The notes: generated by a model from the letters alone, not told the origin. Shown: positions 25,129-59,360, numbered from the stretch's first letter. The stretch is DNA of 64,000 nt from an uncultured Gammaproteobacteria bacterium (GCA_963849825.1 CAWKIK010000003.1:179700-243699); one strand, 5' to 3'. Made by a program: numbers and translations.

Positions 25129-25204
<76 letters not shown>

Positions 25205-25216
25205 AATTTCCCCGCC

Positions 25217-25242
25217 GCGGGCGTCCGCGCCCGCTTTTCTTT
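25217..25242 (+). terminator. Rho-independent terminator between the two tRNAs (GCGGGCG-tccg-CGCCCGC followed by TTTTCTTT)
   Basis: 7-bp GC stem, 4-nt loop, U-rich tail. Confidence 0.55.
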
Positions 25243-25258
25243 CGAAATTGATCACCCG

Positions 25259-25335
25259 GCCCTTGTAGCTCAGCTGGATAGAGCAATCGCCTCCTAAGCG
25301 GTAGGTCGCAGGTTCGAATCCTGCCAAGGGCACCA
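25259..25335 (+). tRNA. tRNA-Arg (anticodon CCT)
   Basis: GCCCTTG-TA-GCTC-AGCTGGATA-GAGC-A-ATCGC-CTCCTAA-GCGGT-AGGTC-GCAGG-TTCGAAT-CCTGC-CAAGGGC-A-CCA. Confidence 0.9.
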
Positions 25336-25346
25336 CGTCTTGGGGC

Positions 25347-27548
25347 TCAACCGTCGCGCCGGGCCTCGATCACGTTGGGCAACTGTCCGATCTTGTCCAG
25401 CAACCGGCTCAGCTGGCGCAGATCGCTGATTTCCATCGACAAGCGCATATGCGCCAGATGCGCCTTGTCGGTGACGGTGTTGAGCGCGATGACGTTGATC
25501 TTTTCATTTGACAATACCGAGGTCACGTCGCGCAGCAGCCCCTGCCGATCATAGGCGATGATCTGCACATCAACGGTGTAGACCGACTCCGGCGTCCCAC
25601 CCCAGGACACCTCGATCAAACGTTCACGCGCCTGGTTTTGCATGCGCAGGACGTTTGGGCAGTCGCTGCGATGAATGGTGACGCCGTGGCCGCGGGTGAT
25701 GTAGCCCAGAATCGAATCCTGCGGCACGGGCTTGCAACAGCGGGCAATGTGGGTCAGCAGGTTGCCGACGCCTTCGATCTTGATATCGCCCGGCAGCCCC
25801 TCGCGCCCGCGTACCCGGGCGGGCCGCACCTTGTCCTTGGCCGGCGCCGGAGCTTGCTCCTGGGCTTCGGCGGCGATCTGATTGGATGTGATTTCACCGC
25901 GGCCGATGGCGGCGAGGAAATCATCCAGACGCTCGAAGCGGAAACGCCGCGCCAAGCGTTCGAAATTCAAATCGACCACGCCCAAGCGGTGCAACTCGCG
26001 CTCCAGGGTGGTGCGGCCCGCGGCGGTGTTCTTTTCGAGATCCTGCTGTTTGAACCAGCTGCGCGCCTTGGCGCGGGCGCGGGAACTTTTCAGATAACCC
26101 AGATGCGGGTTGAGCCAATCGCGGCTGGGAGTGCCGGTGCGGGTGGTCAGAATCTCCACCTGCTCGCCGCTTTTCAGTTCATAGGTCAGCGGCACGATGC
26201 TGCCGTTGACTTTGGCGCCCCGGCAGCGGTGACCGACATCCGTATGGATGTGGTAGGCAAAATCCAACGGCGTCGCCCCGGCGGGCAGGTCGATGACATT
26301 GCCCATGGGCGTCAGCACGTAGACGCGATCTTCGAACACTTCGCCTTTGAAGCGGTCGAGAAACTCGCCTGCACTGGCCTCCTCGTCCTTCCATTCCAGA
26401 ATCTGACGCAGCCACGCGATCTTCTGCTCGAACCCGGCATCGAAACGCGCGCCTTCCTTGTAGCGCCAATGAGCCGCGACGCCGAGTTCCGCATGTGCGT
26501 GCATTTCGTGGGTACGGATCTGCACCTCCAGGTTACGGCCTTCGGGTCCCACCACGGCCGTGTGCAGGGACTGATACTGGTTTTCCTTGGGCGTGGCGAT
26601 GTAATCGTCGAATTCCCTGGGAATGTGCTGCCACAAGGTGTGTACCACGCCGAGGGCGCCGTAGCAGTCGGCAAGGTTGTAGACAAACACGCGCACTGCG
26701 CGAACATCGAAGATGTCTTCGAAGTCGACGCCTTTGCGCTGCATTTTTTTCCAGATGCTGTAGATGTGCTTGGGTCGTCCGGTAACTTCGGCGCGAATAC
26801 CCGCTTCGGCGAGTTCCCTCTGAAGTACCGCTACCACATCGTCGATATAACGGGACCGATCGACCCGCCGTTCGTCCAATAACCGGGCGATACGCTTGTA
26901 GGACTCCGGCTCCAGGTAACGCAGCGCGAGGTCCTCCAATTCCCATTTCAACTGCCAAATGCCGAGCCGATTGGCCAGGGGGGCGAATATGTCCAGCGTC
27001 TCCCGTGCAATCCGGCGCTGGCGTTCCTCGCTCAGGTGAGACAGCGTGCGCATATTGTGCAGACGATCCGCGAGCTTGATCAGTACCACGCGTACGTCGT
27101 CGACCATTGCCAGCAGCATCTTGCGCAAACTCTCGGCGTTCGACCATTCCCTGCGCGAAGCGGTACTCTGCTCGGGATATTGTTGGATGAGCGCCATTTT
27201 GGTGACGCCGTCCACCAACCGCGCCACCGCATCCCCAAACAGGCTCTGCAATTGTTCCAGGGTTACATTGGTGTCTTCGACGACATCGTGGAGCAACGCA
27301 GCCGCAATGGTCTCGTGGTCCAGGGCGAGGTCCGCGAGGATCTCCGCGACCGAGTACACGTGCCGGACGTAAGGTTCGCCGGAGGCGCGGGTCTGCCCTT
27401 GATGAGCTTCCGACGCCACCCGGGCCGCTTCCCGGATCAAAGCGCACTCGGCCTCGGGCCGGCCCGCGCAAATGTCCCGCAGCCAGGCTTCGGTATCGAA
27501 TTGGTTGACGCCGAGCTGACCGGCGTCCTTTTCCTTCACGCGCACCAT
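25347..27548 (-). CDS. spoT: Bifunctional (p)ppGpp synthetase/hydrolase, SpoT-like (RelA/SpoT family)
   Basis: HQGQTRASGEPYVRHV and LLHDVVEDT HD-hydrolase motifs (present in SpoT, degenerate in RelA), synthetase domain, TGS and ACT C-terminus. Start taken at ATG 27548 (MVRVKE). Confidence 0.85.
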   Translation of the reverse strand: MVRVKEKDAGQLGVNQFDTEAWLRDICAGRPEAECALIREAARVASEAHQGQTRASGEPYVRHVYSVAEILADLALDHETIAAALLHDVVEDTNVTLEQLQSLFGDAVARLVDGVTKMALIQQYPEQSTASRREWSNAESLRKMLLAMVDDVRVVLIKLADRLHNMRTLSHLSEERQRRIARETLDIFAPLANRLGIWQLKWELEDLALRYLEPESYKRIARLLDERRVDRSRYIDDVVAVLQRELAEAGIRAEVTGRPKHIYSIWKKMQRKGVDFEDIFDVRAVRVFVYNLADCYGALGVVHTLWQHIPREFDDYIATPKENQYQSLHTAVVGPEGRNLEVQIRTHEMHAHAELGVAAHWRYKEGARFDAGFEQKIAWLRQILEWKDEEASAGEFLDRFKGEVFEDRVYVLTPMGNVIDLPAGATPLDFAYHIHTDVGHRCRGAKVNGSIVPLTYELKSGEQVEILTTRTGTPSRDWLNPHLGYLKSSRARAKARSWFKQQDLEKNTAAGRTTLERELHRLGVVDLNFERLARRFRFERLDDFLAAIGRGEITSNQIAAEAQEQAPAPAKDKVRPARVRGREGLPGDIKIEGVGNLLTHIARCCKPVPQDSILGYITRGHGVTIHRSDCPNVLRMQNQARERLIEVSWGGTPESVYTVDVQIIAYDRQGLLRDVTSVLSNEKINVIALNTVTDKAHLAHMRLSMEISDLRQLSRLLDKIGQLPNVIEARRDG

Positions 27549-27646
27549 GATTGAGCAACCGCTTGGACCCGGGGCGCATCGCGTAGTCCACGCGCGGCAC
27601 CCCACAAGTCATATATGGTGGAACTGCCGATGGTTTGCAAGCGGTC

Positions 27647-33357: not shown

Positions 33358-34362
33358 CTACATCCAATGCTTGCGGCGTAACAACCAAAGCTGCATCGCC
33401 GCCAAACCTCCGAGCAGGAAACACACCGCCAAAAAACCATAATGGTATTCGGCTCCCGGGATGCCGCCGACATTGATCCCCAGCAGGCCGGTCACGAAAC
33501 CCAGGGGCAAGAACAAGGCGGCAACCATCGAGAGCACGTACATCCGCCGATCCATTTGTTCGGATAAACGACTGCTGAGTTCCTCCTGGGTTACCGCGGC
33601 ACGCTCGCGCGCGGCGTCCAAATCCTCCACGTATCGGGTTACCCGGTCACCCACTTCCCGCAGCCGCATGCGGTCCTGCGCGTGCAGCCATTCCGCCTGC
33701 TCCTGTATCAGGCGCGCCATGGCCTCGCGCTGCGGCGCCAGATAGCGGCGAAGGCTGATGATTTGACGCCGCACATCGGCTAGCAGCGGCCTCAGGCGAT
33801 AACTTTCCGAGACCAGAATCTGATCTTCGAGTTCGGCCACGCGCTCGTCGATGCCGTCGATGACATCGGCCATGCGCGCCACCATCCGATCCGAGATCTG
33901 CACCAGAAACTCGCCCGCGCTGCGGGGCCCGCGGCCGGCCGCGATCGCCGCGCGCAGGTCTTCAACCGACAACAGGTGCCGATGCCGCGCCGTAACGATC
34001 CGATGACGGTTCGCCCAAATACGGATCGACACCATGTCTTCAGGCTCTGCGTTGGGATTGAGATTCACTCCGCGCAGCAGCACCAGCAGACCATCGCCCG
34101 CCGGCACGCTGCGCGGACGGGTTTCTTCCTGCAGTAGATTGTCTACCGCCACGGGATCGAGACCACTGTGTTCGCGCACCCAGCGACGGGCATTGTCACT
34201 GGTGTAGTCCAGGTGCACCCACAACACGCCCCGCTCGGGTTGCCAGGCCTCGATCTGCGGCCAGTCGCAAGCCGCGGCGCCCCCCTGGCCATCCAACAAA
34301 TAGGCAGCAATCAGTCCGTCATTGGTGAACATACGAGCCCCGTTAGTTGCCGATTTGCCCAA
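33358..34362 (-). CDS. zntB: CorA-family divalent metal transporter, ZntB-like (GIN motif variant)
   Basis: Two C-terminal TM helices with LGFVTGLLGINVGGIPG (GxN motif with Ile, as in ZntB rather than the CorA GMN). Confidence 0.7.
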   Translation of the reverse strand: MGKSATNGARMFTNDGLIAAYLLDGQGGAAACDWPQIEAWQPERGVLWVHLDYTSDNARRWVREHSGLDPVAVDNLLQEETRPRSVPAGDGLLVLLRGVNLNPNAEPEDMVSIRIWANRHRIVTARHRHLLSVEDLRAAIAAGRGPRSAGEFLVQISDRMVARMADVIDGIDERVAELEDQILVSESYRLRPLLADVRRQIISLRRYLAPQREAMARLIQEQAEWLHAQDRMRLREVGDRVTRYVEDLDAARERAAVTQEELSSRLSEQMDRRMYVLSMVAALFLPLGFVTGLLGINVGGIPGAEYHYGFLAVCFLLGGLAAMQLWLLRRKHWM

Positions 34363-43615: not shown

Positions 43616-45372
43616 AGATCAGGTCCGATGGTCAGGTGCAAGCGGATGCCGGCGCCCGGTTCACTCAATGGCTTGGCCAGGTCGACCCGCACCCAGCCTA
43701 CAGGCGAGCGCCAGTGCACTCCGACGCCCACGCTGTGTTCCAATTCGTCGCCGAAATGATTGATGGCGTTTCCGGCATCGTAGAATACTGCAGCCGCCCA
43801 TTTTTCCTTGATGCGGTGCTCGTACTCGATACTGCCTACCAGCAGGTGGCGGCCGCCGATCACGTTTCCCGCGCTGTCCTTCGGACCAAGGGCTTGATAG
43901 GCAAAGCCGCGCACGCTCTGATCACCGCCGGCGAAGAAACGCACCGAGGGCGGTAAAAGATCGAAATCCTGGACCCAGGTCGTACCCGCCTCGGCCCGCG
44001 CAATGATGCGATCGTCACCGATGGAACGAATCCACTTCCCGTGTACGCGTGCCTGGACGAATGAAGTGTCCGACAAAATTCCTTCATAGGCGCCGCGAAG
44101 ATCCAGGCCAATCCGGGAACCGTTGCGGGTATATAACGGGTCGTTGGTCTTTACCCGCGTCCAACTGGCACCAGGCATGAGTAATGATGTATGCCCTTGC
44201 TGTGCGCCGACCGTGAAATCACTGTCGAGATAGGTCAGCGAAAACACCTGCCGCCACAGCCCGAGCTTCTGCTCCAGTCCAGCTCCCAACTCAAACGATT
44301 TACTGGTGCTGGTCTTGGTATCCTCATCAGTGTATTGGGTACGGAAGAATACTTGGTCGGTACGCGGGTCCCGCACTGGTATTTCATAGCGTGCTTCTAT
44401 CTGATTACGAATCTGGGAAACCTGCAGCTGGCTTTTGAAACGATGGCCTTTTCGATTGACATAACGACGGTCGAAACCAACGCTGCCGCGCGGACCGGTA
44501 TCAGTGCCGTAGCCCACGCCGAAGCTGTAACGGCTGCGCGGCCGCGCTTTCAGCGTCACATGTACCGGCACCGCCAGCCCGGAACTCTCGCCCGGCTGAG
44601 GACTGACTTCCACACGCTCGAAGTAATCGCTGTCGATCAGCGCACTCTGCAACTCGAGTAATTTTTGCGACAGGTAAGGCTCGCCCTCCTGAAATGAAAC
44701 GAAACGGCGCAGCAATTTCTCATCGACCACCGTCGGTTCGAACTGGATGGGACCGAAATGGTAGCGCGGACCGCTGTCGAGCTCGAGTTCGACCCGCGCC
44801 GTATAGGCTTGCATGTCGACCTCGACCTTGTGCTTGGACAACTTGGCGTCGAAGTAGCCGCGTTCTGCGGCCAGGGTCAACAATGCGGTCTTGGCCTTTT
44901 CATATTGCTGATGGAGCAGCGGCGCCCCTTTGCGGATGGGAAAATCCTGCAGTAATTTCTTGAACGCCGGGTCGTCGTGGGCATCACCCTTGATTTCAGC
45001 GTCCAACCTGCCGATTCGCACCTGCGGCCCGGGCTTGATGACATAACGCGCCAACCAGCCGTTGTCGGTCTGTTGCAGCTGATCGTTCACCTGGACCTGG
45101 TAATACCCGAACGGCTCCAGGGCCTGTTTGATCTCCTCCTTCGCTTGCCCGTGCAAACGCCGGATACGCGCGGGGGTGAGATCGGCGTCATTTTTGTGTT
45201 GCTCAAGGCTGAGCAGCTGACGCACGTTATCGAGCGCGTCGTCTTTGACGCCTTCGATTTGCACTTGCAGTGCGGTGGCCGCCCACGCCGACGGAACGAC
45301 GAGCAGCAGCAATACGCCCCAACAGCAAGCGACGCGCCAAGTGCCGGGGTCGCAGATTTTAGTTAAGCCCAT
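43612..45372 (-). CDS. tamA: Translocation and assembly module subunit TamA (Omp85 family, POTRA domains)
   Basis: 586 aa with signal peptide, three POTRA-like segments and an Omp85 barrel ending in aromatic-rich strands. Confidence 0.88.
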   Translation of the reverse strand: MGLTKICDPGTWRVACCWGVLLLLVVPSAWAATALQVQIEGVKDDALDNVRQLLSLEQHKNDADLTPARIRRLHGQAKEEIKQALEPFGYYQVQVNDQLQQTDNGWLARYVIKPGPQVRIGRLDAEIKGDAHDDPAFKKLLQDFPIRKGAPLLHQQYEKAKTALLTLAAERGYFDAKLSKHKVEVDMQAYTARVELELDSGPRYHFGPIQFEPTVVDEKLLRRFVSFQEGEPYLSQKLLELQSALIDSDYFERVEVSPQPGESSGLAVPVHVTLKARPRSRYSFGVGYGTDTGPRGSVGFDRRYVNRKGHRFKSQLQVSQIRNQIEARYEIPVRDPRTDQVFFRTQYTDEDTKTSTSKSFELGAGLEQKLGLWRQVFSLTYLDSDFTVGAQQGHTSLLMPGASWTRVKTNDPLYTRNGSRIGLDLRGAYEGILSDTSFVQARVHGKWIRSIGDDRIIARAEAGTTWVQDFDLLPPSVRFFAGGDQSVRGFAYQALGPKDSAGNVIGGRHLLVGSIEYEHRIKEKWAAAVFYDAGNAINHFGDELEHSVGVGVHWRSPVGWVRVDLAKPLSEPGAGIRLHLTIGPDL

Positions 45373-45570
45373 GATTTATATACGTGGCGATAGCTAGGAC
45401 GGGCGCGCCGAAAGCAATTTCGAGCGTGCGTCATTGCTACAGCATAAGACGCTGGAGCGGCAGTCCCAACCACAGACACGCCGGGTTCTTTGATCGACCC
45501 GCTGCTGAAGTCCGGAAAATCACCCGCCAGAACGGCAATCGCGGTTAAATTTTACGCATTGCGGGGGACG

Positions 45571-45599
45571 AAAAAATCAGCGATTTGAATTCGTCGCTG
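45571..45599 (-). terminator. Putative rho-independent terminator overlapping the 3' end of the PP2C phosphatase gene
   Basis: Minus-strand hairpin CAGCGA-(10 nt)-TCGCTG followed by ATTTTTT. Confidence 0.3.
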
Positions 45600-46389
45600 A
45601 CGGATCCTCAAGATCCAGGGTCAAGGTTGGCTCACCCGAGGCTTGCGCCGCGGCTTGGCCATGCGCCGGCGCCCCGGCAGGGGCAGGCACCAGCAATACG
45701 GTAATATTGTCGGACCCGCCGTGCTCTAGCGCCGAGTCCACCAGCGCTTGGGCCGCGGCCTGGAGATTGCCCGCGCCACGCAACAAGGTGCCGATCTCTT
45801 CTTCGGAGACTTCGCCGGTCAACCCGTCGCTGCATAATAGTATCAATTCGCCCTGGCATAGCGTCCCCGACACGGACTCCACCTCGACCCGATCCAGATC
45901 GGCCACACCCAACGCCTGAGTAATGACGTTGCGGTAGGGATGATTGACCGCTTCGGCGCTGCTGATCTGGCCTTCGTCGAGCATTTTTTGGACAAACGAG
46001 TGGTCGCGGGTCAATTGGCGCAAGCCACCGTTCTGCCACAAATAGGCCCGGCTGTCGCCCACCCAAACCACCTCGTAACGGGCGCCGCGAAGCTGCAAGG
46101 CCACCAGGGTCGAACCCATGCCCGGCTGGCCCAGACCTTCCTGCGCCGCCAGTGTCACCACATCATGGGCACGTGCCGCGGCCGCCTGGAGTCCGGCGCC
46201 AAGACTGAGCTGTTCGTGGATGAAATCCGCGGCAATGCGGCTGGCGACCTCGCCACTCTCGTGACCGCCCATACCGTCGGCGACGATCCACAGACCCAGC
46301 TGCGGGTCGGCGACGTAACTGTCTTCGTTCAGGTCGCGAACCCGGCCTTTGTGCGTGGCTTCGCCATGTCCGTCTGCCTGCTCCGTCAT
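45577..46389 (-). CDS. PP2C-family Ser/Thr protein phosphatase
   Basis: RVRDLNEDSYV...LWIVADGMGGHESGEVAS, classic PPM metal-binding motifs. 270 aa. Confidence 0.88.
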   Translation of the reverse strand: MTEQADGHGEATHKGRVRDLNEDSYVADPQLGLWIVADGMGGHESGEVASRIAADFIHEQLSLGAGLQAAAARAHDVVTLAAQEGLGQPGMGSTLVALQLRGARYEVVWVGDSRAYLWQNGGLRQLTRDHSFVQKMLDEGQISSAEAVNHPYRNVITQALGVADLDRVEVESVSGTLCQGELILLCSDGLTGEVSEEEIGTLLRGAGNLQAAAQALVDSALEHGGSDNITVLLVPAPAGAPAHGQAAAQASGEPTLTLDLEDPSATNSNR

Positions 46390-46632
46390 TCCCTACATCC
46401 AGCTCTTTGGTTCGATTCTCTCCAGTATAGCGAGGAATTGTGCGGGAAACGCCATATAACGCCGTGCAGTGACGCGCAATTCTGTGCCTTACAGAACAAG
46501 TTAGCGAACTGTTGCGGCGAAGCTTGAGGTTCGGTTTCCATAAAACGGGCGGCCTAATTATGATAGATATACAGGTCGAGACGGCGGCAGCAGGAGCCGC
46601 CGGGGCACGGTTCACGGCAGGGGCGCGATCCT

Positions 46633-47115
46633 ATGAGCAGCGAATTCCTCAAAGTACCTAAGACAATCCGGCCCGTGGTGCTGTGGGTGCACCCGGAAGG
46701 CCAGGTTCGCGGCTCCCTTTTCGTCCATACGCAGAGCCGCAGCCACGCCGGTGAGCAGGACCCGGCGGAATTGTTGAACGAAACAGCGCCGTTTCTGATC
46801 GTGCAGCGCCACGATCCCGACGAATTGCGTTTCTATCAGCGCTCCGCAATCGTCCGGGCGGAATACGATGAACCGGCGGGAGCCCCGATGGAGGAAGTCC
46901 ATCCGTTTGAGTGCCGGCTGTATCTGATGGATGGTTCGGTGATCTCCGGCCTGGTGAACGAATCGCTGGCTCCGGACCATGCGCGATTGATCGATTATCT
47001 CAACCTACCAGAAACGCGGTTTGTGCGTCTTTGGCTGGAAGACGAAAGAGTATGCTTGGTCAATAAGGCGTACATCATCCATGCCACCGATCTCGGATCC
47101 GAAGGGGTCGAGTGA
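46633..47115 (+). CDS. Hypothetical protein (160 aa), first gene of the kinase/pilT operon
   Basis: High GC3 ORF immediately upstream (36-nt gap) of the HEAT-repeat kinase; no motif recognised. Possible accessory component or substrate of the kinase module. Confidence 0.5.
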   Translation: MSSEFLKVPKTIRPVVLWVHPEGQVRGSLFVHTQSRSHAGEQDPAELLNETAPFLIVQRHDPDELRFYQRSAIVRAEYDEPAGAPMEEVHPFECRLYLMDGSVISGLVNESLAPDHARLIDYLNLPETRFVRLWLEDERVCLVNKAYIIHATDLGSEGVE

Positions 47116-47151
47116 TCCGCTGACCACAGTTGGATCGTCGAGCAGCACGCC

Positions 47152-49518
47152 ATGGGTCTACTGGACAGCTATAAAGCCAACAAGGCGATCGCGGCGATTC
47201 TCGGTTCGGCCGGCCCGAACTCACCCGAGGCGCGTCAGGCGCTGCTGAAGCTCCGCCAAGTCGGACCTTCCGTGGTACCACGCCTATTGGACGCTATGGC
47301 AGTCTCCGCCCCCAACCCGGCGATCGAAAACCTATTGATCAGTTTCGTCGACGAACGCAGCCTGCCGCATTACGTGAACGCACTGCGAAGTGACGATGCG
47401 CGCCTCGTGGACAGCGTCGTCGGCGTCCTCAGCCACGCGGAGCGTCTGAACCCGGCGGCGTTGATCCCGTTGTATGAAGACCCCGACGTTTCAAAAAAAG
47501 CGCTTACCAGCATCCTGCTGGCCCACCGCAAGCATCTGCACCCGCGCCCCGTCCTGGGACTCCTGAACACGGTGCCCGCGAATTTGCGTCCGTTCCTGTA
47601 TCAGCTGCTGGACCAGACCGTTTCGCTGCAGGACATTCCGGATGTAGCGCTCAGGGCGAAAAGCGACGACCCGGGGATTCGAGCGCGAATGGCCAAGATT
47701 CTCGGCCGCTTCAGCACCGAGGCCAGCCGCGACACCTTGTTCGAGATGCTGCAGGACCCGGCGAAGCAAGTCCGGCTGACGGCACTGGAGTCGTTGATGG
47801 AATTGCAACTGCCGGTGTCTGCGAAACCGGTCTTTGCGCTGCTGCGTGATTCCGATCTGACCGTGCAAACCAAAGCAATCGAGGCGCTGATCAAGATTCG
47901 CGACGCCAAGACCGTGCAATATTTGATCGAAAGCCTGCAGGACGAGTCCGAATATATCCGCCGCGCCGCGGTCGAAGTCCTCAACGAAGTCGGCGATCAG
48001 CGCGCGGTCAAGGATCTACTCAACGCTTTGCGGGACAAGGATTGGTGGGTGAAAGTCCGGGCCGCGGATGCATTGGGCAGCATCGGCGGCCCCAAGGTAC
48101 TGGACGCCGTATTGCAATTGATCCGCGATGAAGACGAGTTTCTGCGCCGCACAGCTGTGGAGATCCTGAATTCCTCCCGACACGAAAAGGCCTTCGATTA
48201 CCTCGTCGAAGCGCTTCAGGACGAGGATTGGTGGGTACGTGAACGGGCCGCCGACGCCTTGGCGGCATTGGGCAAGGAACGCGCCGTGCCACACCTGGAG
48301 CGCTTGCTGTCCGGCGACCCGCGCACGGCTCGGGTCGCGATCCGGGCCCTCGCGAGCCTGGGCGATCATCATGCGGTGGCGCCATTGCTGGCGGAATTGA
48401 AAAACAACGCCGACCCCGACGTGCGCAAGGAAGCAATACGCGCCCTGGGACAGCTGACCGATGCCAAACAAGCGCACACCGTGCGCGAGGCGCTGACGCA
48501 GGTCATCGATGCTTCGGACCCTCGCATCCAACAACTCGCGCACGAAACCATGGCGACCATCGCAATGCGCTTGGACGATGGCACCACCAGCAGCAGCGGC
48601 ATTACCCAGGCAACGCCGGGGGCCATGCTCGACCTTGCCTCGCGTGAGGCCAAGCGCGACCTGTACATCGATGCACCCTCGTTACGAGACGGCGATTTGC
48701 TTGCGGACCGTTACCGGGTGGTGCGCCAGGTCGGAAGCGGCGGCTTCGGGGTCGTAGTCCTGGTCGAAGACACTGTGGTCAGTGACCAGTTCATACTCAA
48801 ATTTCTGCATCCCCACGTTTATTCCGACGCCAACGTGATTCGCCGCTTCACCCAGGAACTGCGCTACGCTCGCAAAATCACACATCCCAACGTGATCCGC
48901 ATTTATGATCTGATCACCGTCGGACAATCGTATGCCATTTCCATGGAATACTTTCCGAGCCATTCCCTGGCAGACGAAATGGCGCCGAAGAAAGCGATGG
49001 ATTTGCGCCGTGGGCTGACTGTAGCGGCCGCGGTAGCCGACGGCATGGCGGCAGCGCAGCACGCGGGCGTCGTGCATCGCGATCTGAAGCCCGCCAACAT
49101 TTTGATCGACGACCGCGACCTGGTCAAAGTGGTGGACTTCGGCTTGGCCTCAGCCACCAGCCAGAATGACGCGCGTCTGACGCGCACGGGCTTGTTGGTC
49201 GGCACACCCACTTACATGGCGCCGGAACAAGCGCGCGGTCACGGCATCGACTCCCGCACCGACGTTTACAGCCTTGGCGTGATGATGTACGAAATGTTTT
49301 CCGGCCGCCCGCCGTACACCGGCGATGATCCGATGGCGATTTTGTTTCAACACGTGGAGGGCAACGCGGCCCCGCTGCAGGAACGAAATCCGGATGTTCC
49401 AGATCGGCTCGCGCGCGTGATTGCCAAAGCCATGGCTGCAGATCCCGAGCGCCGCTACCAGGACTTCGACGAACTCACGGCAGAATTGGCGATGTGCCGG
49501 CGGGAGATGCAGGTTTGA
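47152..49518 (+). CDS. Ser/Thr protein kinase with N-terminal array of HEAT (PBS-lyase-type) repeats and C-terminal Hanks-type kinase domain
   Basis: ~12-15 HEAT-like repeats (e.g. DEDWWVRERAADALAALG, DKDWWVKVRAADALGSIG). Kinase subdomains VAVK-like (FILKFL), HRDLKPANILID, DFGLA, GTPTYMAPEQ. The domain order is inverted relative to most bacterial STPKs. Confidence 0.85.
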   Translation: MGLLDSYKANKAIAAILGSAGPNSPEARQALLKLRQVGPSVVPRLLDAMAVSAPNPAIENLLISFVDERSLPHYVNALRSDDARLVDSVVGVLSHAERLNPAALIPLYEDPDVSKKALTSILLAHRKHLHPRPVLGLLNTVPANLRPFLYQLLDQTVSLQDIPDVALRAKSDDPGIRARMAKILGRFSTEASRDTLFEMLQDPAKQVRLTALESLMELQLPVSAKPVFALLRDSDLTVQTKAIEALIKIRDAKTVQYLIESLQDESEYIRRAAVEVLNEVGDQRAVKDLLNALRDKDWWVKVRAADALGSIGGPKVLDAVLQLIRDEDEFLRRTAVEILNSSRHEKAFDYLVEALQDEDWWVRERAADALAALGKERAVPHLERLLSGDPRTARVAIRALASLGDHHAVAPLLAELKNNADPDVRKEAIRALGQLTDAKQAHTVREALTQVIDASDPRIQQLAHETMATIAMRLDDGTTSSSGITQATPGAMLDLASREAKRDLYIDAPSLRDGDLLADRYRVVRQVGSGGFGVVVLVEDTVVSDQFILKFLHPHVYSDANVIRRFTQELRYARKITHPNVIRIYDLITVGQSYAISMEYFPSHSLADEMAPKKAMDLRRGLTVAAAVADGMAAAQHAGVVHRDLKPANILIDDRDLVKVVDFGLASATSQNDARLTRTGLLVGTPTYMAPEQARGHGIDSRTDVYSLGVMMYEMFSGRPPYTGDDPMAILFQHVEGNAAPLQERNPDVPDRLARVIAKAMAADPERRYQDFDELTAELAMCRREMQV

Positions 49519-50612
49519 GTCGCATCAACGCATTCTTGAAACTTGGACGCGAGCAAGGCTGCTCCGATATCCATTTCGCCGTCGGCATGCCGCCGATGCT
49601 GCGACTGATGGGCGAATTGGCGCCCATCCGCTACCGCAACTTGTCCGCCGACGAACTCGAGTCGCTGATCAAGGAGCTTCTCACGCCGGCGCTCACGCAG
49701 ATGCTGGCAGCGGGTCACGACCTGGATTTTTCCTATCAAGACGAAGAAATCGGCCGCTTCCGGGTCAACGTTTACCGCAAAGTGAGCGGCCTGGGCGCGA
49801 CATTGCGCGCCATACCGGCGACGATCCCAGGCCTGGACCAACTCGGGCTGCCGAGCGCCGTCACCAGCCGCCTGCACCAGGCGCACCAGGGTTTGATTCT
49901 GGTCACGGGGGCTACGGGCACTGGCAAATCGACAACCCTGGCATCGATGATCGACCTGCTCAACCATTTCCGCCGCCTCAACATCATCACCCTGGAAGAT
50001 CCGATCGAATTCGTGCACAAGAGCAATCTGTCCCTGGTTGTGCAACGGGAAGTGGGCACACATGTCAAAAGTTTTGCCGACGGCCTTCGCGCGGCGCTGC
50101 GCGAGGACCCGGACGTGATCCTGGTGGGGGAATTGCGGGATCCGGAAACCATTTCCATGGCCATGACAGCGGCCGAAACGGGCCACCTGGTGCTCGGTAC
50201 GCTCCACACCTCCTCCGCTGCTAAGACTTTGGACCGCATCATCGACGCCATGCCGACCGAACAGAAATCCCAGGCCGCCGTATTTCTCGGCCAACATCTG
50301 CAAATGGTCCTGAGTCAGAAACTGGTACGCACCGCGGACGGCAAAGGCCGCAAAGCCATGGTCGAACTCATGTTCAATACGCCTGCAATCGCCAACCTGA
50401 TCCACAGCGGCAAGGTGCATCAGATCCCATCGGTTATCCAAACCGGGCGTCAAGCGGGCATGCAGCTCATGGATCAGGCCTTGCTGGAGGCGTTACGCAA
50501 GCGCGAACTGGACCCGGATGACGCCTATTTGCATTCCACGGACAAGAAACAGTTTCAGCGTTTCGTCACCAACCCCGAGCTGTTGCCGCCGGTCGACCTC
50601 ACGGTCGGCTGA
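49494..50612 (+). CDS. pilT: PilT-family type IV pilus retraction ATPase (paralog 1)
   Basis: Walker A GATGTGKSTTL, ASP box, Walker B DVILVGELRD, His box, PilT-specific TLHTSSA and AIANLIHSGK motifs. Start is either ATG 49494 (25-nt overlap) or TTG 49515, forming a TTGA start/stop overlap with the kinase gene. Confidence 0.85.
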   Translation: MPAGDAGLSRINAFLKLGREQGCSDIHFAVGMPPMLRLMGELAPIRYRNLSADELESLIKELLTPALTQMLAAGHDLDFSYQDEEIGRFRVNVYRKVSGLGATLRAIPATIPGLDQLGLPSAVTSRLHQAHQGLILVTGATGTGKSTTLASMIDLLNHFRRLNIITLEDPIEFVHKSNLSLVVQREVGTHVKSFADGLRAALREDPDVILVGELRDPETISMAMTAAETGHLVLGTLHTSSAAKTLDRIIDAMPTEQKSQAAVFLGQHLQMVLSQKLVRTADGKGRKAMVELMFNTPAIANLIHSGKVHQIPSVIQTGRQAGMQLMDQALLEALRKRELDPDDAYLHSTDKKQFQRFVTNPELLPPVDLTVG

Positions 50613-50632
50613 GTCCTGACCCTGCGCCCATC

Positions 50633-51709
50633 ATGAGCCGAATCGACACTTTTCTGGAACTGGTAGTCAAGCAAGGGGGCTCGGACCTGCATTTGGTTTC
50701 CGGCAATCCGCCGCGGATGCGCTTGTTCGGCGACATCTATCCGGTTCGCTTCCGCACGCTGAGCGCCGAAGATACCAAGGACCTGCTGTACGAAATCATG
50801 CCGCCGCGGGCACGGGAACTGCTCGAAGCCGACGGCAATATCGATTTCGCGTACATGGTGCCGGACCTGGCCCGGTTCCGTGTAAACGTATTCCATCATA
50901 TCGACGGTATCGGCGCCGTTTTCCGCGTCATCCAGGGCGACGTGCGCACCCTCGAGCAACTCGGATTGCCGCCGGTGCTGGCAAACCTGGCGCGCCAACG
51001 CAAAGGGCTGCTGCTGGTGACGGGGCCTACCGGTTCCGGTAAGACGACCACCCTGGCCGCGCTCATCGATCGGATCAACCGGGAGCGCAGGGGACATATC
51101 CTGACCATCGAGGACCCGATCGAGTACGTCCACCTCAATCAGGGGTGCCTCGTAAGTCAGCGCGAAGTAGGCGCGCATACGGAAAGCTTCGCAGACGCCC
51201 TGCGCTCGGCACTGCGCGAGGATCCGGATGTCATTCTGGTGGGCGAAATGCGCGATCTCGAAACCATTCATCTGGCGGTTACCGCAGCGGAAATGGGTAT
51301 CCTGGTGTTGGGCACCCTGCACACCAACAATGCGGTGAGCACCGTCGACCGGATCATCAACGCGTTCCCGCCCGGAGAAGCGCCCTATATCCGCTCGGCG
51401 CTGTCCACGTCCCTGTGCGGGGTCGTTTCGCAACAACTCCTGCGCACCGCGGACGGCAAGTCCCGGGTGGCCGCCGTGGAAATCCTGATCAATAACGCAG
51501 CGGTGGCGAATATCATCCGCGAAGGCACGCCGGATCAGCTGGAGAACGTAATCCAAAGCGGCGCCATGCAGGGAATGCAGAGCCTCGACACGGCCCTGCG
51601 GCGCCTGCTGGACAACAAGCTGATCAACGGAATCGACGCCTTCCGACTGGCCCGGCAGAAATCCCATTTCGAGCAGTACCGTGAGCACGGCGGTGTAAAC
51701 CCCGTCTGA
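50633..51709 (+). CDS. PilT/PilU-family type IV pilus retraction ATPase (paralog 2)
   Basis: Walker A GPTGSGKTTTL, Walker B DVILVGEMRD, TLHTNNAVSTVDRI and AVANIIREG motifs. 358 aa. Confidence 0.85.
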   Translation: MSRIDTFLELVVKQGGSDLHLVSGNPPRMRLFGDIYPVRFRTLSAEDTKDLLYEIMPPRARELLEADGNIDFAYMVPDLARFRVNVFHHIDGIGAVFRVIQGDVRTLEQLGLPPVLANLARQRKGLLLVTGPTGSGKTTTLAALIDRINRERRGHILTIEDPIEYVHLNQGCLVSQREVGAHTESFADALRSALREDPDVILVGEMRDLETIHLAVTAAEMGILVLGTLHTNNAVSTVDRIINAFPPGEAPYIRSALSTSLCGVVSQQLLRTADGKSRVAAVEILINNAAVANIIREGTPDQLENVIQSGAMQGMQSLDTALRRLLDNKLINGIDAFRLARQKSHFEQYREHGGVNPV

Positions 51710-51828
51710 ACTGCCGGTGGCTGCGTCGGCCGTGACAAGACGGTCGCGGCGCAGTATAAGATACTTATTTTCGTATGGCTTTTGACGCGGACCGAACCAA
51801 ACCCGCGGCGGCGTGAACGGGGGAGGCG

Positions 51829-52500
51829 ATGGCGGCAAAATTGATCATGACGTTGGACGGCGCAATCGTGCGCGAGGTTCCGGTGGCCACAGACAGCATC
51901 AGTGTCGGGCGCAAGCACGGCAATGATGTCCAAATCAACGACATGACGGTCAGTGGCCGCCATGCCCTGGTAACCACCTTGGTCGGCAATACGTACGTCG
52001 AAGATCTGGGCAGCACCAACGGCACTCTGGTCAACGGCCGCAAGGTGCGCAAGCTGCTGCTGAATCACGGTGACGTGATTCAAGTGGGCACCCATCAATT
52101 GACCTACTTCCTCGAGGAAAAGGCGGCCTATGAACCGACCATGTTTCTGCGGGCGGAGGTAGCGGAAACCCAGGTTTTCGCCACAGACGGTGACTTCGGC
52201 GCGGATATCAAAGGGATGCCGTTGGCGGGTGTGCGCATCTTGAACGGGCCGCTGGCGAAGAAAGTGCTCGAGCTGCGCAAGCCGTTCACTACCCTGGGCT
52301 ACAAAGGCATCAAAATGGCCATGATCACCCGCAGCAACATGGGCTACGTGATCATCACGGTCAAAAGCAGCAAGGGAAAGCGCGCCAGCGACGTACCGTT
52401 GGTAAACGGCAAGCCGCTGGATCAGGACGCGCGCCAGTTACAGGAACACGATATTATCGAAGTGGCTGGCTTTCAGATGGAATTCTTCTACATCCATTGA
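51829..52500 (+). CDS. FHA-domain protein (phospho-threonine-binding) with ~100-aa C-terminal domain of unknown function
   Basis: N-terminal FHA: SISVGRKHGNDVQINDMTVSGRHALV...TNGTLVNGRKV (GR...SxxH...NGT signature). Confidence 0.8.
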   Translation: MAAKLIMTLDGAIVREVPVATDSISVGRKHGNDVQINDMTVSGRHALVTTLVGNTYVEDLGSTNGTLVNGRKVRKLLLNHGDVIQVGTHQLTYFLEEKAAYEPTMFLRAEVAETQVFATDGDFGADIKGMPLAGVRILNGPLAKKVLELRKPFTTLGYKGIKMAMITRSNMGYVIITVKSSKGKRASDVPLVNGKPLDQDARQLQEHDIIEVAGFQMEFFYIH

Positions 52501-52709
52501 TTCGCGGCATGGCCGGTGCGCGTCCGGCTCACAATCCGCGGGCGCACCATGGCCGCCAATTCGCGCCGCGCATGATCCCGGGACGAGTAAGGACCGCGCA
52601 CACCTTCGCGGCACTCCACGTACCAACCCGGCTGGCTCACGCCCGGCCCGCCGACCCAGAAAAACCGACTTCTGCGGAACGCATCGCCGCTCCAACTCTG
52701 CCTGTTCAT
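52488..52709 (-). CDS. Small conserved-looking hypothetical protein (~73 aa), not in the ORF track at this start
   Basis: ATG 52709 preceded by a GGAG SD. High GC3. Sequence MNRQSWSGDAFRRSRFFWVGGPGVSQPGWYVECREGVRGPYSSRDHARREL resembles short Pseudomonas-type proteins with an RSERFF...GWY...REG..GPF.SR.EAE pattern (DUF6316-like, from memory). 3' end overlaps the convergent FHA gene by 13 nt. Confidence 0.35.
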   Translation of the reverse strand: MNRQSWSGDAFRRSRFFWVGGPGVSQPGWYVECREGVRGPYSSRDHARRELAAMVRPRIVSRTRTGHAANQWM

Positions 52710-52812
52710 TCGCCGCTCCCGGTTACCGTTACTGAAAGATAAGCCCAGCCTAGTAAACCGCGAACGCGCCGCCAGTCGCGCCGTGCGCGCGAGCCCAGGG
52801 TATGTCGGAGTT

Positions 52813-54900
52813 TCACTGGGGCACTTGCGAGCCAAACCCGGCCTTGGACATCAACGGCGTGCGTTCGGGCAGTTCCAGGGTAGCGGCGCCCCCGGTCACG
52901 AGCCGGCGCCGCAAGGGCGAATCGGTTACCGGCCATTCGCCCTTGCTCACATTGACTGTGCCCGGTCCGGCGAAGGCCAGGTAGCCGAAGCGGCTGTAGT
53001 GCGGCAGCTTGCGGGCCAGCGCCGCGACGGCATCCGCCGAGGTGGCGTCGATCCAACCGTAGGTCGCCGAACCCGCCGCCGCGGGTGTAGCCAAGACCAC
53101 GCTGTGATCGCCATGGGTCAGAATCCGCCCGTCGATGCGCACCGTGTCGCCATCCACCTGCAACGGTAAATGACCCGCGTTTGCAAATACGCGCGAGCGC
53201 AGCCGGTTGTCGCGTCCAAGTACCCAGATCGCATCGGCGCCATCCAACGCGCCGACTCGATCATCGTCGACGACAATGCGGTCTTCGGGGCGCGCCCAAG
53301 TCTGCGCCAGGCGGCGGTAAGCCGTGCGCATCTGCGCCGATGCCGCGCTTGGAAGCACAAAGACTGATCGTGTCGCGCCCATCAGACGCCCCAGGGATGG
53401 CGGCAATTCACCTCGATCCAGCCGCCGGAATACGTCGAAGTCGGGATCAACCGCCAATTGCTGCGGTCTGCTATTGAAGCGAAGCTCGAAGGTCTGCTCG
53501 CGACGATCCATGGAAACAGTGCGCAACTGCGCCACCTGGCGTCCTTCCACTTGCACTGCGACCGGGATCTTCAAGCCGTACACGGCGCCGGATTGACGCT
53601 GTCGTAATGTCAGGCGCAGCCCATAACCGACGTCGCGGCGCCGGACCTCCACCTCTCCCAGCGCCAACGCAGGCGCGCCGCTGCGTTGCAGCCACTGCCC
53701 GAAGAAAGCGCCCAGTTTCTGGCCGCTGGTGCGCTCGAATACGGTTTCCAGAGCGTCGAAGCCGGCCCGCTGAAACCGATACTGCCGATAGAAGTCCCGC
53801 AATCCGGCGACGAATTGCGCATCGCCAAGCCGGCGCCGCAACATGTGGAACAACATCATACCTTTGCTGTAACCAATGGCCTGGCTTGCTTCACCGTGCC
53901 GGGCGCGGAATCGCCGTAGCGGAAAATCATCGTTGTCGGCGACGAAATCCGCGAATTTCTGCAACGCGGCGCGCCGTTGCGCCGCGCCGCGACCGTCCTG
54001 CTCGGCAAGCAGATAGTCGGACAGATAGGTGGTCAACGCTTCCGCCCAATTACCGGCGTCGTAATCCACCCACACGCCATTGCCCCACCAATTGTGCAAA
54101 ATTTCGTGGGGATAAGAGGTATGCACGATAAACGGCAGGCGAATTACCCGTGACCCGAGCAACGTGAACGACGGCATGCCGTAGCCGGTTTGTTGCGCAT
54201 TCTCGACCAGCGCAAATTTCGGATACGGATAGGGGCCGATCAAATCGCTGTACATGGCCACGTAACGCGCCGTGGCGTCGAGATAGCGCTGCGCCATGGC
54301 ATCGTCCGCGGTACGCAGAAACACTTCGCTGCGCCCCCACGGGTTATCACGCCGGTAGCGCACGAAAGCCGCGGCGATCAGATAAATGCCTTGTTGAGGC
54401 GTATCGGCGGTCCACGTCTCCTCGCCCGGTCGATCGCCGGCCCGTCCCTGGCTGACACAGTGCCAGCGCGCGGGAAGCCGCATATGAAGCGAGAAACGCA
54501 CTGGCATACCGGAGAAATCCGCATACCACGACGACTCTGGTCCCAATACGACGTTGTCGGCCGACAGATCGGCCCCCCGGCCCTGGGAGAGCCGACCACC
54601 ATAGGACAAAGTGAAGCTTCGCACCCCTTCCGGCAATGCCACGCGGTAGGTCCGTACGCCGCTGGCCGGATCGCTGTCAGCGGTTTCGCGCAGCTCATAT
54701 TCCGCAACCCGCGCCTGCAAGCCTGCGTCGAGCGTAAACTGCGGGCCGTTGCCGGCCGGTAGCGTCACTTGGTCCTGGACCGACAAGCTGCCCGCAGCGG
54801 GGTCGAACTCCACCGCCATAACATGGTGAACCACTTGCGCGGTGGCGACGTTTGCCAAGGCGCACAGCACGGCGAGCAAAGCAATCCGCATCGAGTCCAT
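52813..54900 (-). CDS. Secreted M1-family zinc metallopeptidase (aminopeptidase N-like)
   Basis: Signal peptide; HEILHNWWGN HExxH-x18-E zinc motif (NWAEALTTY) analogous to the M1 HEIAHQWFGN...WLNEG. Confidence 0.75.
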   Translation of the reverse strand: MDSMRIALLAVLCALANVATAQVVHHVMAVEFDPAAGSLSVQDQVTLPAGNGPQFTLDAGLQARVAEYELRETADSDPASGVRTYRVALPEGVRSFTLSYGGRLSQGRGADLSADNVVLGPESSWYADFSGMPVRFSLHMRLPARWHCVSQGRAGDRPGEETWTADTPQQGIYLIAAAFVRYRRDNPWGRSEVFLRTADDAMAQRYLDATARYVAMYSDLIGPYPYPKFALVENAQQTGYGMPSFTLLGSRVIRLPFIVHTSYPHEILHNWWGNGVWVDYDAGNWAEALTTYLSDYLLAEQDGRGAAQRRAALQKFADFVADNDDFPLRRFRARHGEASQAIGYSKGMMLFHMLRRRLGDAQFVAGLRDFYRQYRFQRAGFDALETVFERTSGQKLGAFFGQWLQRSGAPALALGEVEVRRRDVGYGLRLTLRQRQSGAVYGLKIPVAVQVEGRQVAQLRTVSMDRREQTFELRFNSRPQQLAVDPDFDVFRRLDRGELPPSLGRLMGATRSVFVLPSAASAQMRTAYRRLAQTWARPEDRIVVDDDRVGALDGADAIWVLGRDNRLRSRVFANAGHLPLQVDGDTVRIDGRILTHGDHSVVLATPAAAGSATYGWIDATSADAVAALARKLPHYSRFGYLAFAGPGTVNVSKGEWPVTDSPLRRRLVTGGAATLELPERTPLMSKAGFGSQVPQ

Positions 54901-58280: not shown

Positions 58281-59360
58281 CTAGAACCAACCTTTGCGTT
58301 TGAAGTACATCAACATGGCGCCGGCCACCACAATCATGAGCAGCCACACCAACGGGTAGCCATAGTACCAATGCAATTCCGGCATCGCCCACGGGCTCGC
58401 GTCGTTACGAAAGTTCATACCGTACACTCCGACCACGAACGTCAGTGGTATAAAGATCGTCGCGATCATGGTTAACACGCGCATGATGTCATTGAGCCGG
58501 TTGCTGACACTGGAAAGATAAATATCCAACATCGACGTTGTCATGTCGCGGTAGGTTTCCAGCAGGTCCATGATCTGAATCGTATGATCGTAACAATCAC
58601 GGAAATAAATCTTGCTTTCATCGCTGATCACGCCAGTGTCATCACGGATCAGCGCGTTGACCACTTCTCTTTGCGGCCAGAGCATACGCCGCAGCTGCAA
58701 TAAATTTCGCTTCAGACGCTGAAGTCGATAAAGCGTGTCTCGATCGGGATTTTCCAGCAAATCGTCTTCCAGGCTTTCGACATCGTCACCCAGTTGCTCC
58801 AAAGGCGGGAAGCTTTCATCGATCACCAAGTCCACCAACGCATATAGCAGATGGTCGATGGCCCGGCCGCGGATCTTACCGGCTTGCTCCCTGAGTCGCT
58901 TGCGCACCGGCTCGAACGGATCCTGCACGCCCTGGTGAAAGCTGATCAGGAATCGCTCGCCCATGAACAGGCTGACTTGCTCCGTACTGGCCGTGCGAGT
59001 TGCCTGATCGAATCGCGCCAGGCTCAACACCGCGAACAGGTGCTTGCCATAGGTTTCGAATTTCGGCCGCTGGCCGGTATTGGCGATGTCTTCGAGTGCC
59101 AGGGGATGCAGCTCGAATACGGCGCCCAACGCGCGCAGGGTCTCGGCGTCGGGATGTCCTTGCACGTGGATCCAGGTATTGGAATCGCGGTGTGCAAACT
59201 CTCGGCAATCCTCCACATGAAGCAACCGGCGTTCCTCGAGGTTTTCACTCCCGTAATCCAGCAGCGACAACGTCAAGGGAAGCTGCTGTTCGTGCGCAGG
59301 ACGTTCCAGAGTACCGGGCGCAGTGCCGGGAGGGTGATAACGCTTGATGAAATAGGCCAT
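58281..59360 (-). CDS. corA: Magnesium/cobalt transporter CorA
   Basis: C-terminal TM pair with the YGMNF (GMN) signature and KRKGWF end. Confidence 0.88.
   Translation of the reverse strand: MAYFIKRYHPPGTAPGTLERPAHEQQLPLTLSLLDYGSENLEERRLLHVEDCREFAHRDSNTWIHVQGHPDAETLRALGAVFELHPLALEDIANTGQRPKFETYGKHLFAVLSLARFDQATRTASTEQVSLFMGERFLISFHQGVQDPFEPVRKRLREQAGKIRGRAIDHLLYALVDLVIDESFPPLEQLGDDVESLEDDLLENPDRDTLYRLQRLKRNLLQLRRMLWPQREVVNALIRDDTGVISDESKIYFRDCYDHTIQIMDLLETYRDMTTSMLDIYLSSVSNRLNDIMRVLTMIATIFIPLTFVVGVYGMNFRNDASPWAMPELHWYYGYPLVWLLMIVVAGAMLMYFKRKGWF

Follow-up and report, generated by a model that had tools for sequence, protein, structure and literature searches.

A conserved operon of uncultured Gammaproteobacteria combines a HEAT-repeat Ser/Thr kinase, an FHA adaptor, and two PilT-type ATPases

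We analyzed a stretch of 64,000 nucleotides (nt) from an uncultured Gammaproteobacteria bacterium (GCA_963849825.1, CAWKIK010000003.1:179700-243699), called the window in the following, with focus on a gene group that encodes a small protein of 160 amino acids (aa), a Hanks-type Ser/Thr kinase with HEAT repeats, two ATPases of the PilT family (T1 and T2), and an adaptor protein with an FHA domain. A PP2C phosphatase gene is located upstream of this group in divergent orientation. All features are summarized in Table 1. An initial inspection of the DNA without database searches (the sequence-only reading) had proposed six genes at this locus. All six were found at the positions given there, and profile searches matched the assigned domains PP2C, HEAT_2, Pkinase, PilT/PilU, and FHA. 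Hydrophobic segments were absent from all six proteins, and the cassette is entirely soluble.

Table 1. Features of the locus in the window and example genes and operons at loci of relatives (locus identifiers starting with L).
Feature	Length	Position	Strand	Remarks
PP2C phosphatase	270 aa	45577-46389	-	Pfam and Stp1-type models; divergent from the operon
Divergent intergenic region, presumed promoter region	243 nt	46390-46632		between PP2C gene and operon
Protein with putative tandem Sm-like fold, first operon gene	160 aa	46633-47115	+	weak DUF6812 match
HEAT-repeat Hanks-type Ser/Thr kinase	788 aa	47152-49518	+	HEAT_2 and Pkinase
T1, PilT-family hexameric ATPase paralog	365 aa (from TTG)	49515-50612	+	TIGR01420
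T2, PilT-family hexameric ATPase paralog	358 aa	50633-51709	+	TIGR01420
Two-domain FHA adaptor	223 aa	51829-52500	+	FHA domain
Small open reading frame	73 aa	52488-52709	-	DUF6316, 27.7 bits (cutoff 28.5)
CHASE2-kinase/PP2C/adaptor/short-FHA operon		L087:4748-9047
CHASE2-kinase/PP2C/adaptor/short-FHA operon		L088:2165-6481
FHA-GAF-HD-GYP gene		L056:2439-4430	-	present at 29 other loci besides L056 and L073
FHA-GAF-HD-GYP gene		L073:1652-3733	-
NlpC/P60 gene		L002:4272-4772	+
NlpC/P60 gene		L036:1962-2429	+

For the analysis of conservation, one genome per species was scanned with the adaptor alignment as query and two search patterns, one of which was the adaptor peptide YEPTMF. The best 80 of 103 matching stretches were examined as loci, and the window proteins were mapped onto them. 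All 80 loci belonged to metagenome-assembled Gammaproteobacteria labeled Thiohalophilus, Thioalkalispiraceae, Ectothiorhodospiraceae, Chromatiales, or Thiohalomonadales, and the hosts of the cassette are uncultured, sulfur-cycle-type Gammaproteobacteria. At every locus with enough flanking sequence the five core genes were found on one strand in the order Sm-like protein, HEAT-kinase, T1, T2, and adaptor. Because order and strand were the same in all these relatives, the arrangement is not due to chance, and the five genes form one conserved operon. The check for adjacency of kinase and pilT genes, suggested by the sequence-only reading, revealed the kinase, the FHA protein, and the two PilT-family ATPases as one tightly packed conserved unit. 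T1 and T2 were the best-conserved cassette proteins, with 63-76% identity across the clade.

Synteny and junction statistics together identify a five-gene operon with conserved coupling of kinase and T1. The proposed overlap of the kinase stop codon with the first pilT start was borne out as TTGA at 49515-49518, where a TTG codon at 49515 runs into the stop TGA (49516-49518). This TTG fits the PilT model, which matched from position 2. A GTG at 49494 is an alternative start of T1 and results in a 25-nt overlap with the kinase gene; the gene call of the closest relative has the 4-nt version of the junction. Throughout the loci the median distance from kinase to T1 was -1 nt, and the two genes overlapped or abutted in 62 of 70 cases. 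Coupling of the kinase to both PilT genes had been suggested, but only the T1 gene overlaps the kinase gene, so that this part of the claim did not hold for T2. In the window T1 and T2 are separated by 20 nt, and T2 and the FHA gene by 119 nt. The medians of the other junctions (~60-80 scorable loci each) were 10 nt for T1 to T2, 41 nt for T2 to the adaptor, and 43 nt for the Sm-like protein to the kinase. Scanning for promoters and terminators gave results at chance level. A sigma-70-like site was found at 46535-46564(+) in the divergent intergenic region, the number of such sites in the scanned region being that expected by chance. Rfam searches over 45300-53000 yielded no credible match, and no riboswitch was found in the divergent intergenic region.

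The kinase carries a HEAT_2 array (Pfam, 6e-58) with 5 matched stretches within residues ~165-475, and a Pkinase domain (Pfam, 1.8e-48) at residues 521-770. Its catalytic motifs were complete, including GSGGFG at residue 528, the beta-3 Lys of FILKF, HRDLKPAN at 642, DFG at 662, and APE at 690. A kinase lacking catalytic residues, named beforehand as grounds to abandon the proposal, was therefore not what we found. The maximum hydropathy over 19 residues was 1.44, which indicated the lack of a membrane segment. With an N-terminal HEAT part and a C-terminal kinase domain, the soluble protein indeed has the atypical sensor-first, kinase-last order noticed from the sequence. All of the top 120 homologs were 782-843 aa long and combined HEAT repeats with a kinase domain, and every scorable cassette locus contained a kinase of this HEAT-plus-kinase subfamily (~790-840 aa). 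The HEAT core with its repeated DWWV(K/R)(V/E)RAADAL motifs was the most conserved part of the protein, the linker between HEAT and kinase parts was variable, and the activation-loop residues T677, T685, and T687 were invariant in 18 aligned kinase sequences.

Both ATPases scored well above the curated cutoff of the PilT/PilU model TIGR01420 (319.1 bits), with 426.1 bits for T1 and 444.5 bits for T2. They were 49% identical to each other and 47% (T1) and 50% (T2) identical to P. aeruginosa PilT; the latter values depend on the reference sequence used, and PDB bit scores agreed with them. Compared with 3JVU (P. aeruginosa PilT), T1 reached 299.5 bits and T2 328 bits, and scores for Aquifex and Geobacter PilT were similar. 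The scores for PilU (9N32) were below those for PilT, with 251 bits for T1 and 273 bits for T2, the latter compared to 328-332 bits for Pseudomonas and Geobacter PilT. Alignment with PilT showed intact Walker A and B, Asp box, and His box motifs (GATGTGKST and GPTGSGKTT, DVILVGE, EDPIE, GTLHT). Changes were visible in the AIRNLIRE motif, which reads AIANLIHS in T1 of the window. In ~73 T1 orthologs the consensus was A-I-[AGS]-N-L-I-[LMV]-x with loss of RE, and in ~73 T2 orthologs A-[VIT]-[SA]-N-[ILV]-I-R-E, where RE is kept and the first R is lost. Judged by identities and bit scores, neither protein appears to be an ortholog of canonical gammaproteobacterial PilT or PilU. The assignment of both genes to the family by the sequence-only reading stood, but its second paralog, described as PilT/PilU, was more PilT-like than PilU-like. 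On these sequence comparisons, T1 and T2 are diverged PilT-like paralogs and not a PilT/PilU pair.

The first protein of the operon had been noted simply as hypothetical. It was instead recognized as the fifth member of the core, co-encoded at every scorable locus. It showed a weak, sub-threshold match to DUF6812 in its C-terminal half and no detectable sequence relation to Hfq. Its putative fold consists of two small Sm/Hfq-like beta-barrels in tandem in a soluble protein.

The adaptor is a member of a very tight family of ~222-aa proteins. Its FHA domain (Pfam, 1.7e-20) spans residues 24-87, and the phospho-threonine-binding residues GR, SxxH, and NGT were invariant in the orthologs. A disordered linker follows with the conserved sequence YEPTMF and then I, L, or V, which places a hydrophobic residue at position +3 of T104. 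A threonine with such a residue at +3 (pT-x-x-I/L/V) is a typical FHA ligand. YEPTMF was also invariant in independently retrieved homologs. The C-terminal domain, described as unknown next to the correctly assigned FHA domain, had no Pfam match even at E=10. It was predicted as all-beta with a predicted local distance difference test score (pLDDT) of 80-90, and hhalign of the N-domain versus the C-domain gave a local probability of 72% (E 3.5e-5). Based on these predictions, it is probably a degenerate FHA fold, an FHA-like beta-sandwich. The FHA domain of ArnA and the FHA-activated diguanylate cyclase of Bdellovibrio were among the structural matches. A second tandem paralog of the adaptor gene, with 47-54% identity to the window protein at the protein level, was observed ~700-1400 nt after the first in ~20 loci (L052, L053, L061, L063, L064, L066, L068, L070, L072-L079, L082).

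A profile search against 1.84 billion cluster representatives recovered the tight adaptor family as one representative together with many relatives of 200-245 aa, which matched over their full length in a single stretch. In this wider family the motif [YF]E[KP]T[MV] was found in 11 of 14 aligned sequences, and the alignment showed the shared domains. The window adaptor shows each of the family features, namely an FHA domain, the threonine motif, an FHA-like C-domain, and a length of ~200-245 aa. Two of the relatives had enough flanking sequence, and both were encoded in operons with the order CHASE2-kinase, PP2C, adaptor, and short-FHA protein, with no ATPase. A third one, on a short contig, had a gene of the PP2C/SpoIIE family directly upstream. 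The occurrence of the wider family in these operons, which are without PilT and appear to be its usual setting, indicates that the adaptor is a dedicated kinase partner. Full-text searching of the literature found no paper on this widespread CHASE2-kinase/PP2C/FHA operon.

Two further genes recurred next to the core. The PP2C of the window scored 1.8e-12 with PP2C_2, 2e-11 with PP2C, and 221.7 bits with the Stp1/IreP model (cutoff 230), and the metal-binding motifs DGMGGH, GDSR, SDG, and DN were visible. Syntenic orthologs with 47-59% identity were found upstream on the opposite strand in ~25 of ~60 loci (~40%), directly adjacent as in the window in ~10. In many loci, including those from Thiohalophilus, no PP2C gene was present within 5 kb. 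The phosphatase, which had been counted as part of the module, is thus present and divergent in the window, but it is accessory and not core. A gene for an FHA-GAF-HD-GYP protein, in which the HD and HHEKLDGSGYP motifs were intact, was located immediately upstream and divergent in 31 loci (about half), and where both genes occurred, the PP2C gene was found beyond it. It was absent from the lineage of the window. Its position suggests a link from phospho-threonine to cyclic di-GMP (c-di-GMP) in the relatives.

The outer flanks varied by subclade, with TamAB and an M1 peptidase on the side of the window lineage and NlpC/P60 plus RND efflux or PBP1 genes elsewhere. Clustering of the flanking open reading frames yielded only NlpC/P60, FHA-GAF-HD-GYP, and PP2C in addition to subclade-specific synteny (RND efflux, PBP1, TPR). 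In 32 loci the gene for the NlpC/P60 peptidoglycan hydrolase lay a short distance upstream, preceding either the cassette or the HD-GYP gene. It was not found in the window, and this neighborhood may be plain synteny. Downstream of the adaptor gene, the proposed small convergent open reading frame was present and overlapped the 3' end of the FHA gene by 13 nt. Together with M1 peptidase and TamA it was syntenic in the three closest relatives only, and it was called as a gene in the closest one. Because of this limited synteny it is regarded as a neighbor and not as a member of the module, probably a real but unrelated small gene. The 64-kb surroundings represent an ordinary chromosome with RelA/SpoT, a lytic transglycosylase, two CorA proteins, a YhdP-like protein, TamA/TamB, and an M1 peptidase, and a uniform composition of ~60% G+C. 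Apart from the locus itself, no gene for a kinase, an FHA protein, or a PilT-family protein was found in the window, and pilus and secretion genes were likewise absent from it. Genes for tRNA-Ala(CGC) and tRNA-Arg(CCT) at 25129-25335(+) are located beside the full-length RelA/SpoT gene (25347-27605, minus strand), and the CorA paralogs are encoded at 33358-34362(-) and 58281-59360(-).

One genome labeled as Kaarinaea lacus, a Nostocales cyanobacterium (GCA_975902315.1, L086), contained three distinct HEAT-kinase copies on short contigs. One of these contigs carried the whole cassette plus a CHASE2-kinase/FHA pair. An occurrence in cyanobacteria was rejected on the basis of the three distinct copies, their gammaproteobacterium-like identity, and the short contigs, which most likely originated from co-assembled or co-cultured heterotrophic Gammaproteobacteria.

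How might these proteins act together? We give an even chance to a cytoplasmic phospho-threonine switch dedicated to the pair of PilT-type motor ATPases. Co-encoding and the intact catalytic and binding residues were observed directly; we infer the following steps from them. The HEAT array would bind proteins as a scaffold or sensor through which the kinase is activated, with autophosphorylation of the activation loop. It would then phosphorylate T104 in the linker of the adaptor (YEPTMF-L), possibly the ATPases, too. Binding of the phospho-threonine by the FHA domain of the adaptor, in cis or in trans, would control assembly of the T1/T2 hexamers, their localisation, or their activity. The PP2C, where present, would reset the switch. 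In about half of the relatives, the FHA-GAF-HD-GYP phosphodiesterase may be drawn to these phospho-marks as well, linking the switch to c-di-GMP. The Sm-like protein could be a partner of the ATPases that binds the ring or acts as an adaptor. Because of the PilT/PilU family scores, retraction or remodelling of a fiber of the type IV pilus class appears the most likely cellular output, which is plausible and unproven and based on family membership.

The switch is supported by the strict synteny despite differing outer flanks, the tight packing of the genes, the catalytic completeness, and the invariant FHA residues. The linker threonine motif with its hydrophobic residue at +3 is kept well beyond the clade, and PP2C and FHA-GAF-HD-GYP genes recur divergently upstream. 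Precedents are the threonine phosphorylation pathway of type VI secretion, the FHA-activated diguanylate cyclase of Bdellovibrio, and the binding of Hfq to PilB1 in Synechocystis. Several observations weigh against the switch or against its proposed output. Genes for pilus proteins, secretins, or pilins were found neither in the 64-kb window nor in any 10-kb flank of the loci. T1 and T2 share no more than 47-50% of their residues with P. aeruginosa PilT, and T1 is without the RE of AIRNLIRE. Most loci lack the PP2C gene, so that many cassettes come without a co-encoded reset step. The invariance of YEPTMF in the fetched loci is partly circular, as the peptide was itself a search pattern. Finally, all carriers found are metagenome-assembled genomes, and the proposed switch is read from their sequences.

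Some of these points fit a real switch in which T1 and T2 are a PilT-derived pair acting on another substrate, such as a different machine of the envelope, a complex of protein with DNA or RNA, or a secretion process, with the Sm-like protein as substrate adaptor. We regard this as rather unlikely. The distance between T1 and T2 is about the same as that of either to canonical PilT (47-50%; ~300-330 bits), RE is lost in T1, no pilus gene is located near any locus, and a dedicated tandem Sm/Hfq-like protein is always co-encoded. Moreover, DotB and TraJ of the PilT clade serve non-pilus machines, and their models scored 1e-40 to 1e-53 here. Nevertheless, both ATPases are well above the PilT/PilU cutoff and match this model far better than those for DotB and TraJ, and T2 keeps AIxNLIRE. 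The missing pil neighbors say little, because canonical pilT-pilU loci are normally unlinked to other pil genes. A specific form of this idea, with T1/T2 as a phospho-regulated PilT-derived motor gone from the pilus, the Sm-like protein as substrate adaptor, the HEAT-kinase as scaffold, and a nucleic acid-protein or envelope target, is in our view unlikely.

Mere co-transcription would leave the kinase/FHA module to act on other targets, the linkage to the ATPase genes reflecting shared expression or ancestry. Hanks kinases are often pleiotropic, and the adaptor family works in operons without any ATPase. Nonetheless, we judge this explanation improbable, as the gene order is invariant even where the adaptor has diverged to ~50% identity and the outer flanks are reshuffled, the stop-start overlap of kinase and T1 is conserved, the ATPase genes are flanked by those for the kinase and its adaptor, and the HEAT-plus-kinase subfamily occurs in every scorable locus. 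An anti-phage or conflict system with the kinase as sensor and the ATPases as effectors was also considered, since the kinase domain matched the PADLOC models PD-T4-6 and mad6 and the PP2C weakly matched one candidate defence model. The matches of both proteins cover the generic domain only. The ATPases matched mad8 alone, and weakly, in the P-loop region (~25 residues in T1, ~100 in T2), and PADLOC gave no match for the Sm-like protein or the adaptor. With generic matches only and no multi-component match to one system, a known anti-phage system was rejected. The cassette is a single-copy chromosomal operon, clade-wide, located among housekeeping genes such as those for TamAB, RelA/SpoT, and CorA in a region of uniform composition with no signs of mobile elements, and a role in defence is highly improbable.

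A precedent for such wiring is the threonine phosphorylation pathway of the type VI secretion system (T6SS) with the kinase PpkA, the PP2C phosphatase PppA, and the adaptor Fha1 in P. aeruginosa and Agrobacterium. PMC5995506 was among the literature matches. In both, genes for a Hanks kinase, a PP2C, and an FHA adaptor accompany that for a nanomachine ATPase, and the post-translational logic is that of a phospho-threonine read by an FHA domain, as proposed here. In contrast, the cassette kinase is soluble with N-terminal HEAT repeats, whereas PpkA has an N-terminal kinase domain, spans the membrane, and carries a periplasmic domain. The ATPases of the cassette are PilT-type and not ClpV, the PP2C is optional, and the adaptor reached 37.5 bits with the TagH/Fha model (VI_FHA, cutoff 120). 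T6SS families were missing both from the 21 proteins scanned in the window, a set without the smaller open reading frames of its first 25 kb, and from the gene table of L001, a nearly identical locus. The logic of the T6SS pathway, recognized by the sequence-only reading, therefore holds for the domain trio in the window, but the other T6SS features are absent and the PP2C is not core.

Canonical pilT-pilU loci share with the cassette two tandem genes of the family, whose products exceed the cutoff of TIGR01420 and have intact ATPase boxes. Unlike these, both proteins of the cassette pair are PilT-like, with 47-50% identity to P. aeruginosa PilT and an altered AIRNLIRE motif, and their genes lie between those for a kinase and an FHA adaptor, neither of which occurs in canonical loci. 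The uncharacterised CHASE2-kinase/PP2C/FHA operons of Proteobacteria have the same adaptor family and the trio of kinase, phosphatase, and adaptor. However, their kinase is a membrane protein with a CHASE2 sensor, their PP2C gene is in line with the others, and they have neither ATPases nor an Sm-like protein.

In the Sulfolobus archaellum network, the FHA protein ArnA, the kinases ArnC and ArnD, and PP2A control a type IV pilus-related machine (PMC5300886). The parallel to the cassette lies in the combination of kinases of the Hanks type with a phosphatase and an FHA protein. Nevertheless, that network is archaeal, mainly concerns archaellum gene expression, and its genes do not share one operon with that for the motor ATPase. 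In Synechocystis, Hfq binds the pilus ATPase PilB1 (PMC7690835), a further case of an Sm-fold protein attached to a type IV pilus ATPase. There, a true Hfq and an extension ATPase are involved, whereas the tandem Sm-like protein of the cassette belongs to another family, and its partnership with the ATPases is proposed from co-encoding.

Full-text literature searching for PilT in combination with FHA, kinase, or HEAT and for DUF6812 retrieved no description of the cassette, in agreement with the sequence-only reading, to which no described system of this architecture was known. The cassette apparently represents an undescribed variation on a known signalling scheme, in which PilT-type ATPases are wired to a module of Hanks kinase and FHA adaptor. 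Motors of the PilT family are regulated by partner proteins and cyclic nucleotides. To our knowledge, and in the literature searched, there is no account of PilT motors controlled through Ser/Thr phosphorylation by a Hanks-type kinase and a dedicated FHA adaptor. With five genes plus an optional phosphatase and an optional c-di-GMP phosphodiesterase, the cassette is compact, and it offers T104 as candidate phospho-site with the FHA domain as candidate reader. This compact soluble set makes the hypothesis open to work with purified proteins or heterologous hosts, despite the uncultured carriers. A widespread, uncharacterised kinase/PP2C/FHA module would have been rewired onto a motor ATPase, which parallels the wiring in type VI secretion. 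If the motor has indeed gone from the pilus, the cassette would represent a new class of Ser/Thr-kinase-gated secretion-ATPase machines, found so far only in uncultured Gammaproteobacteria of the sulfur-cycle type.

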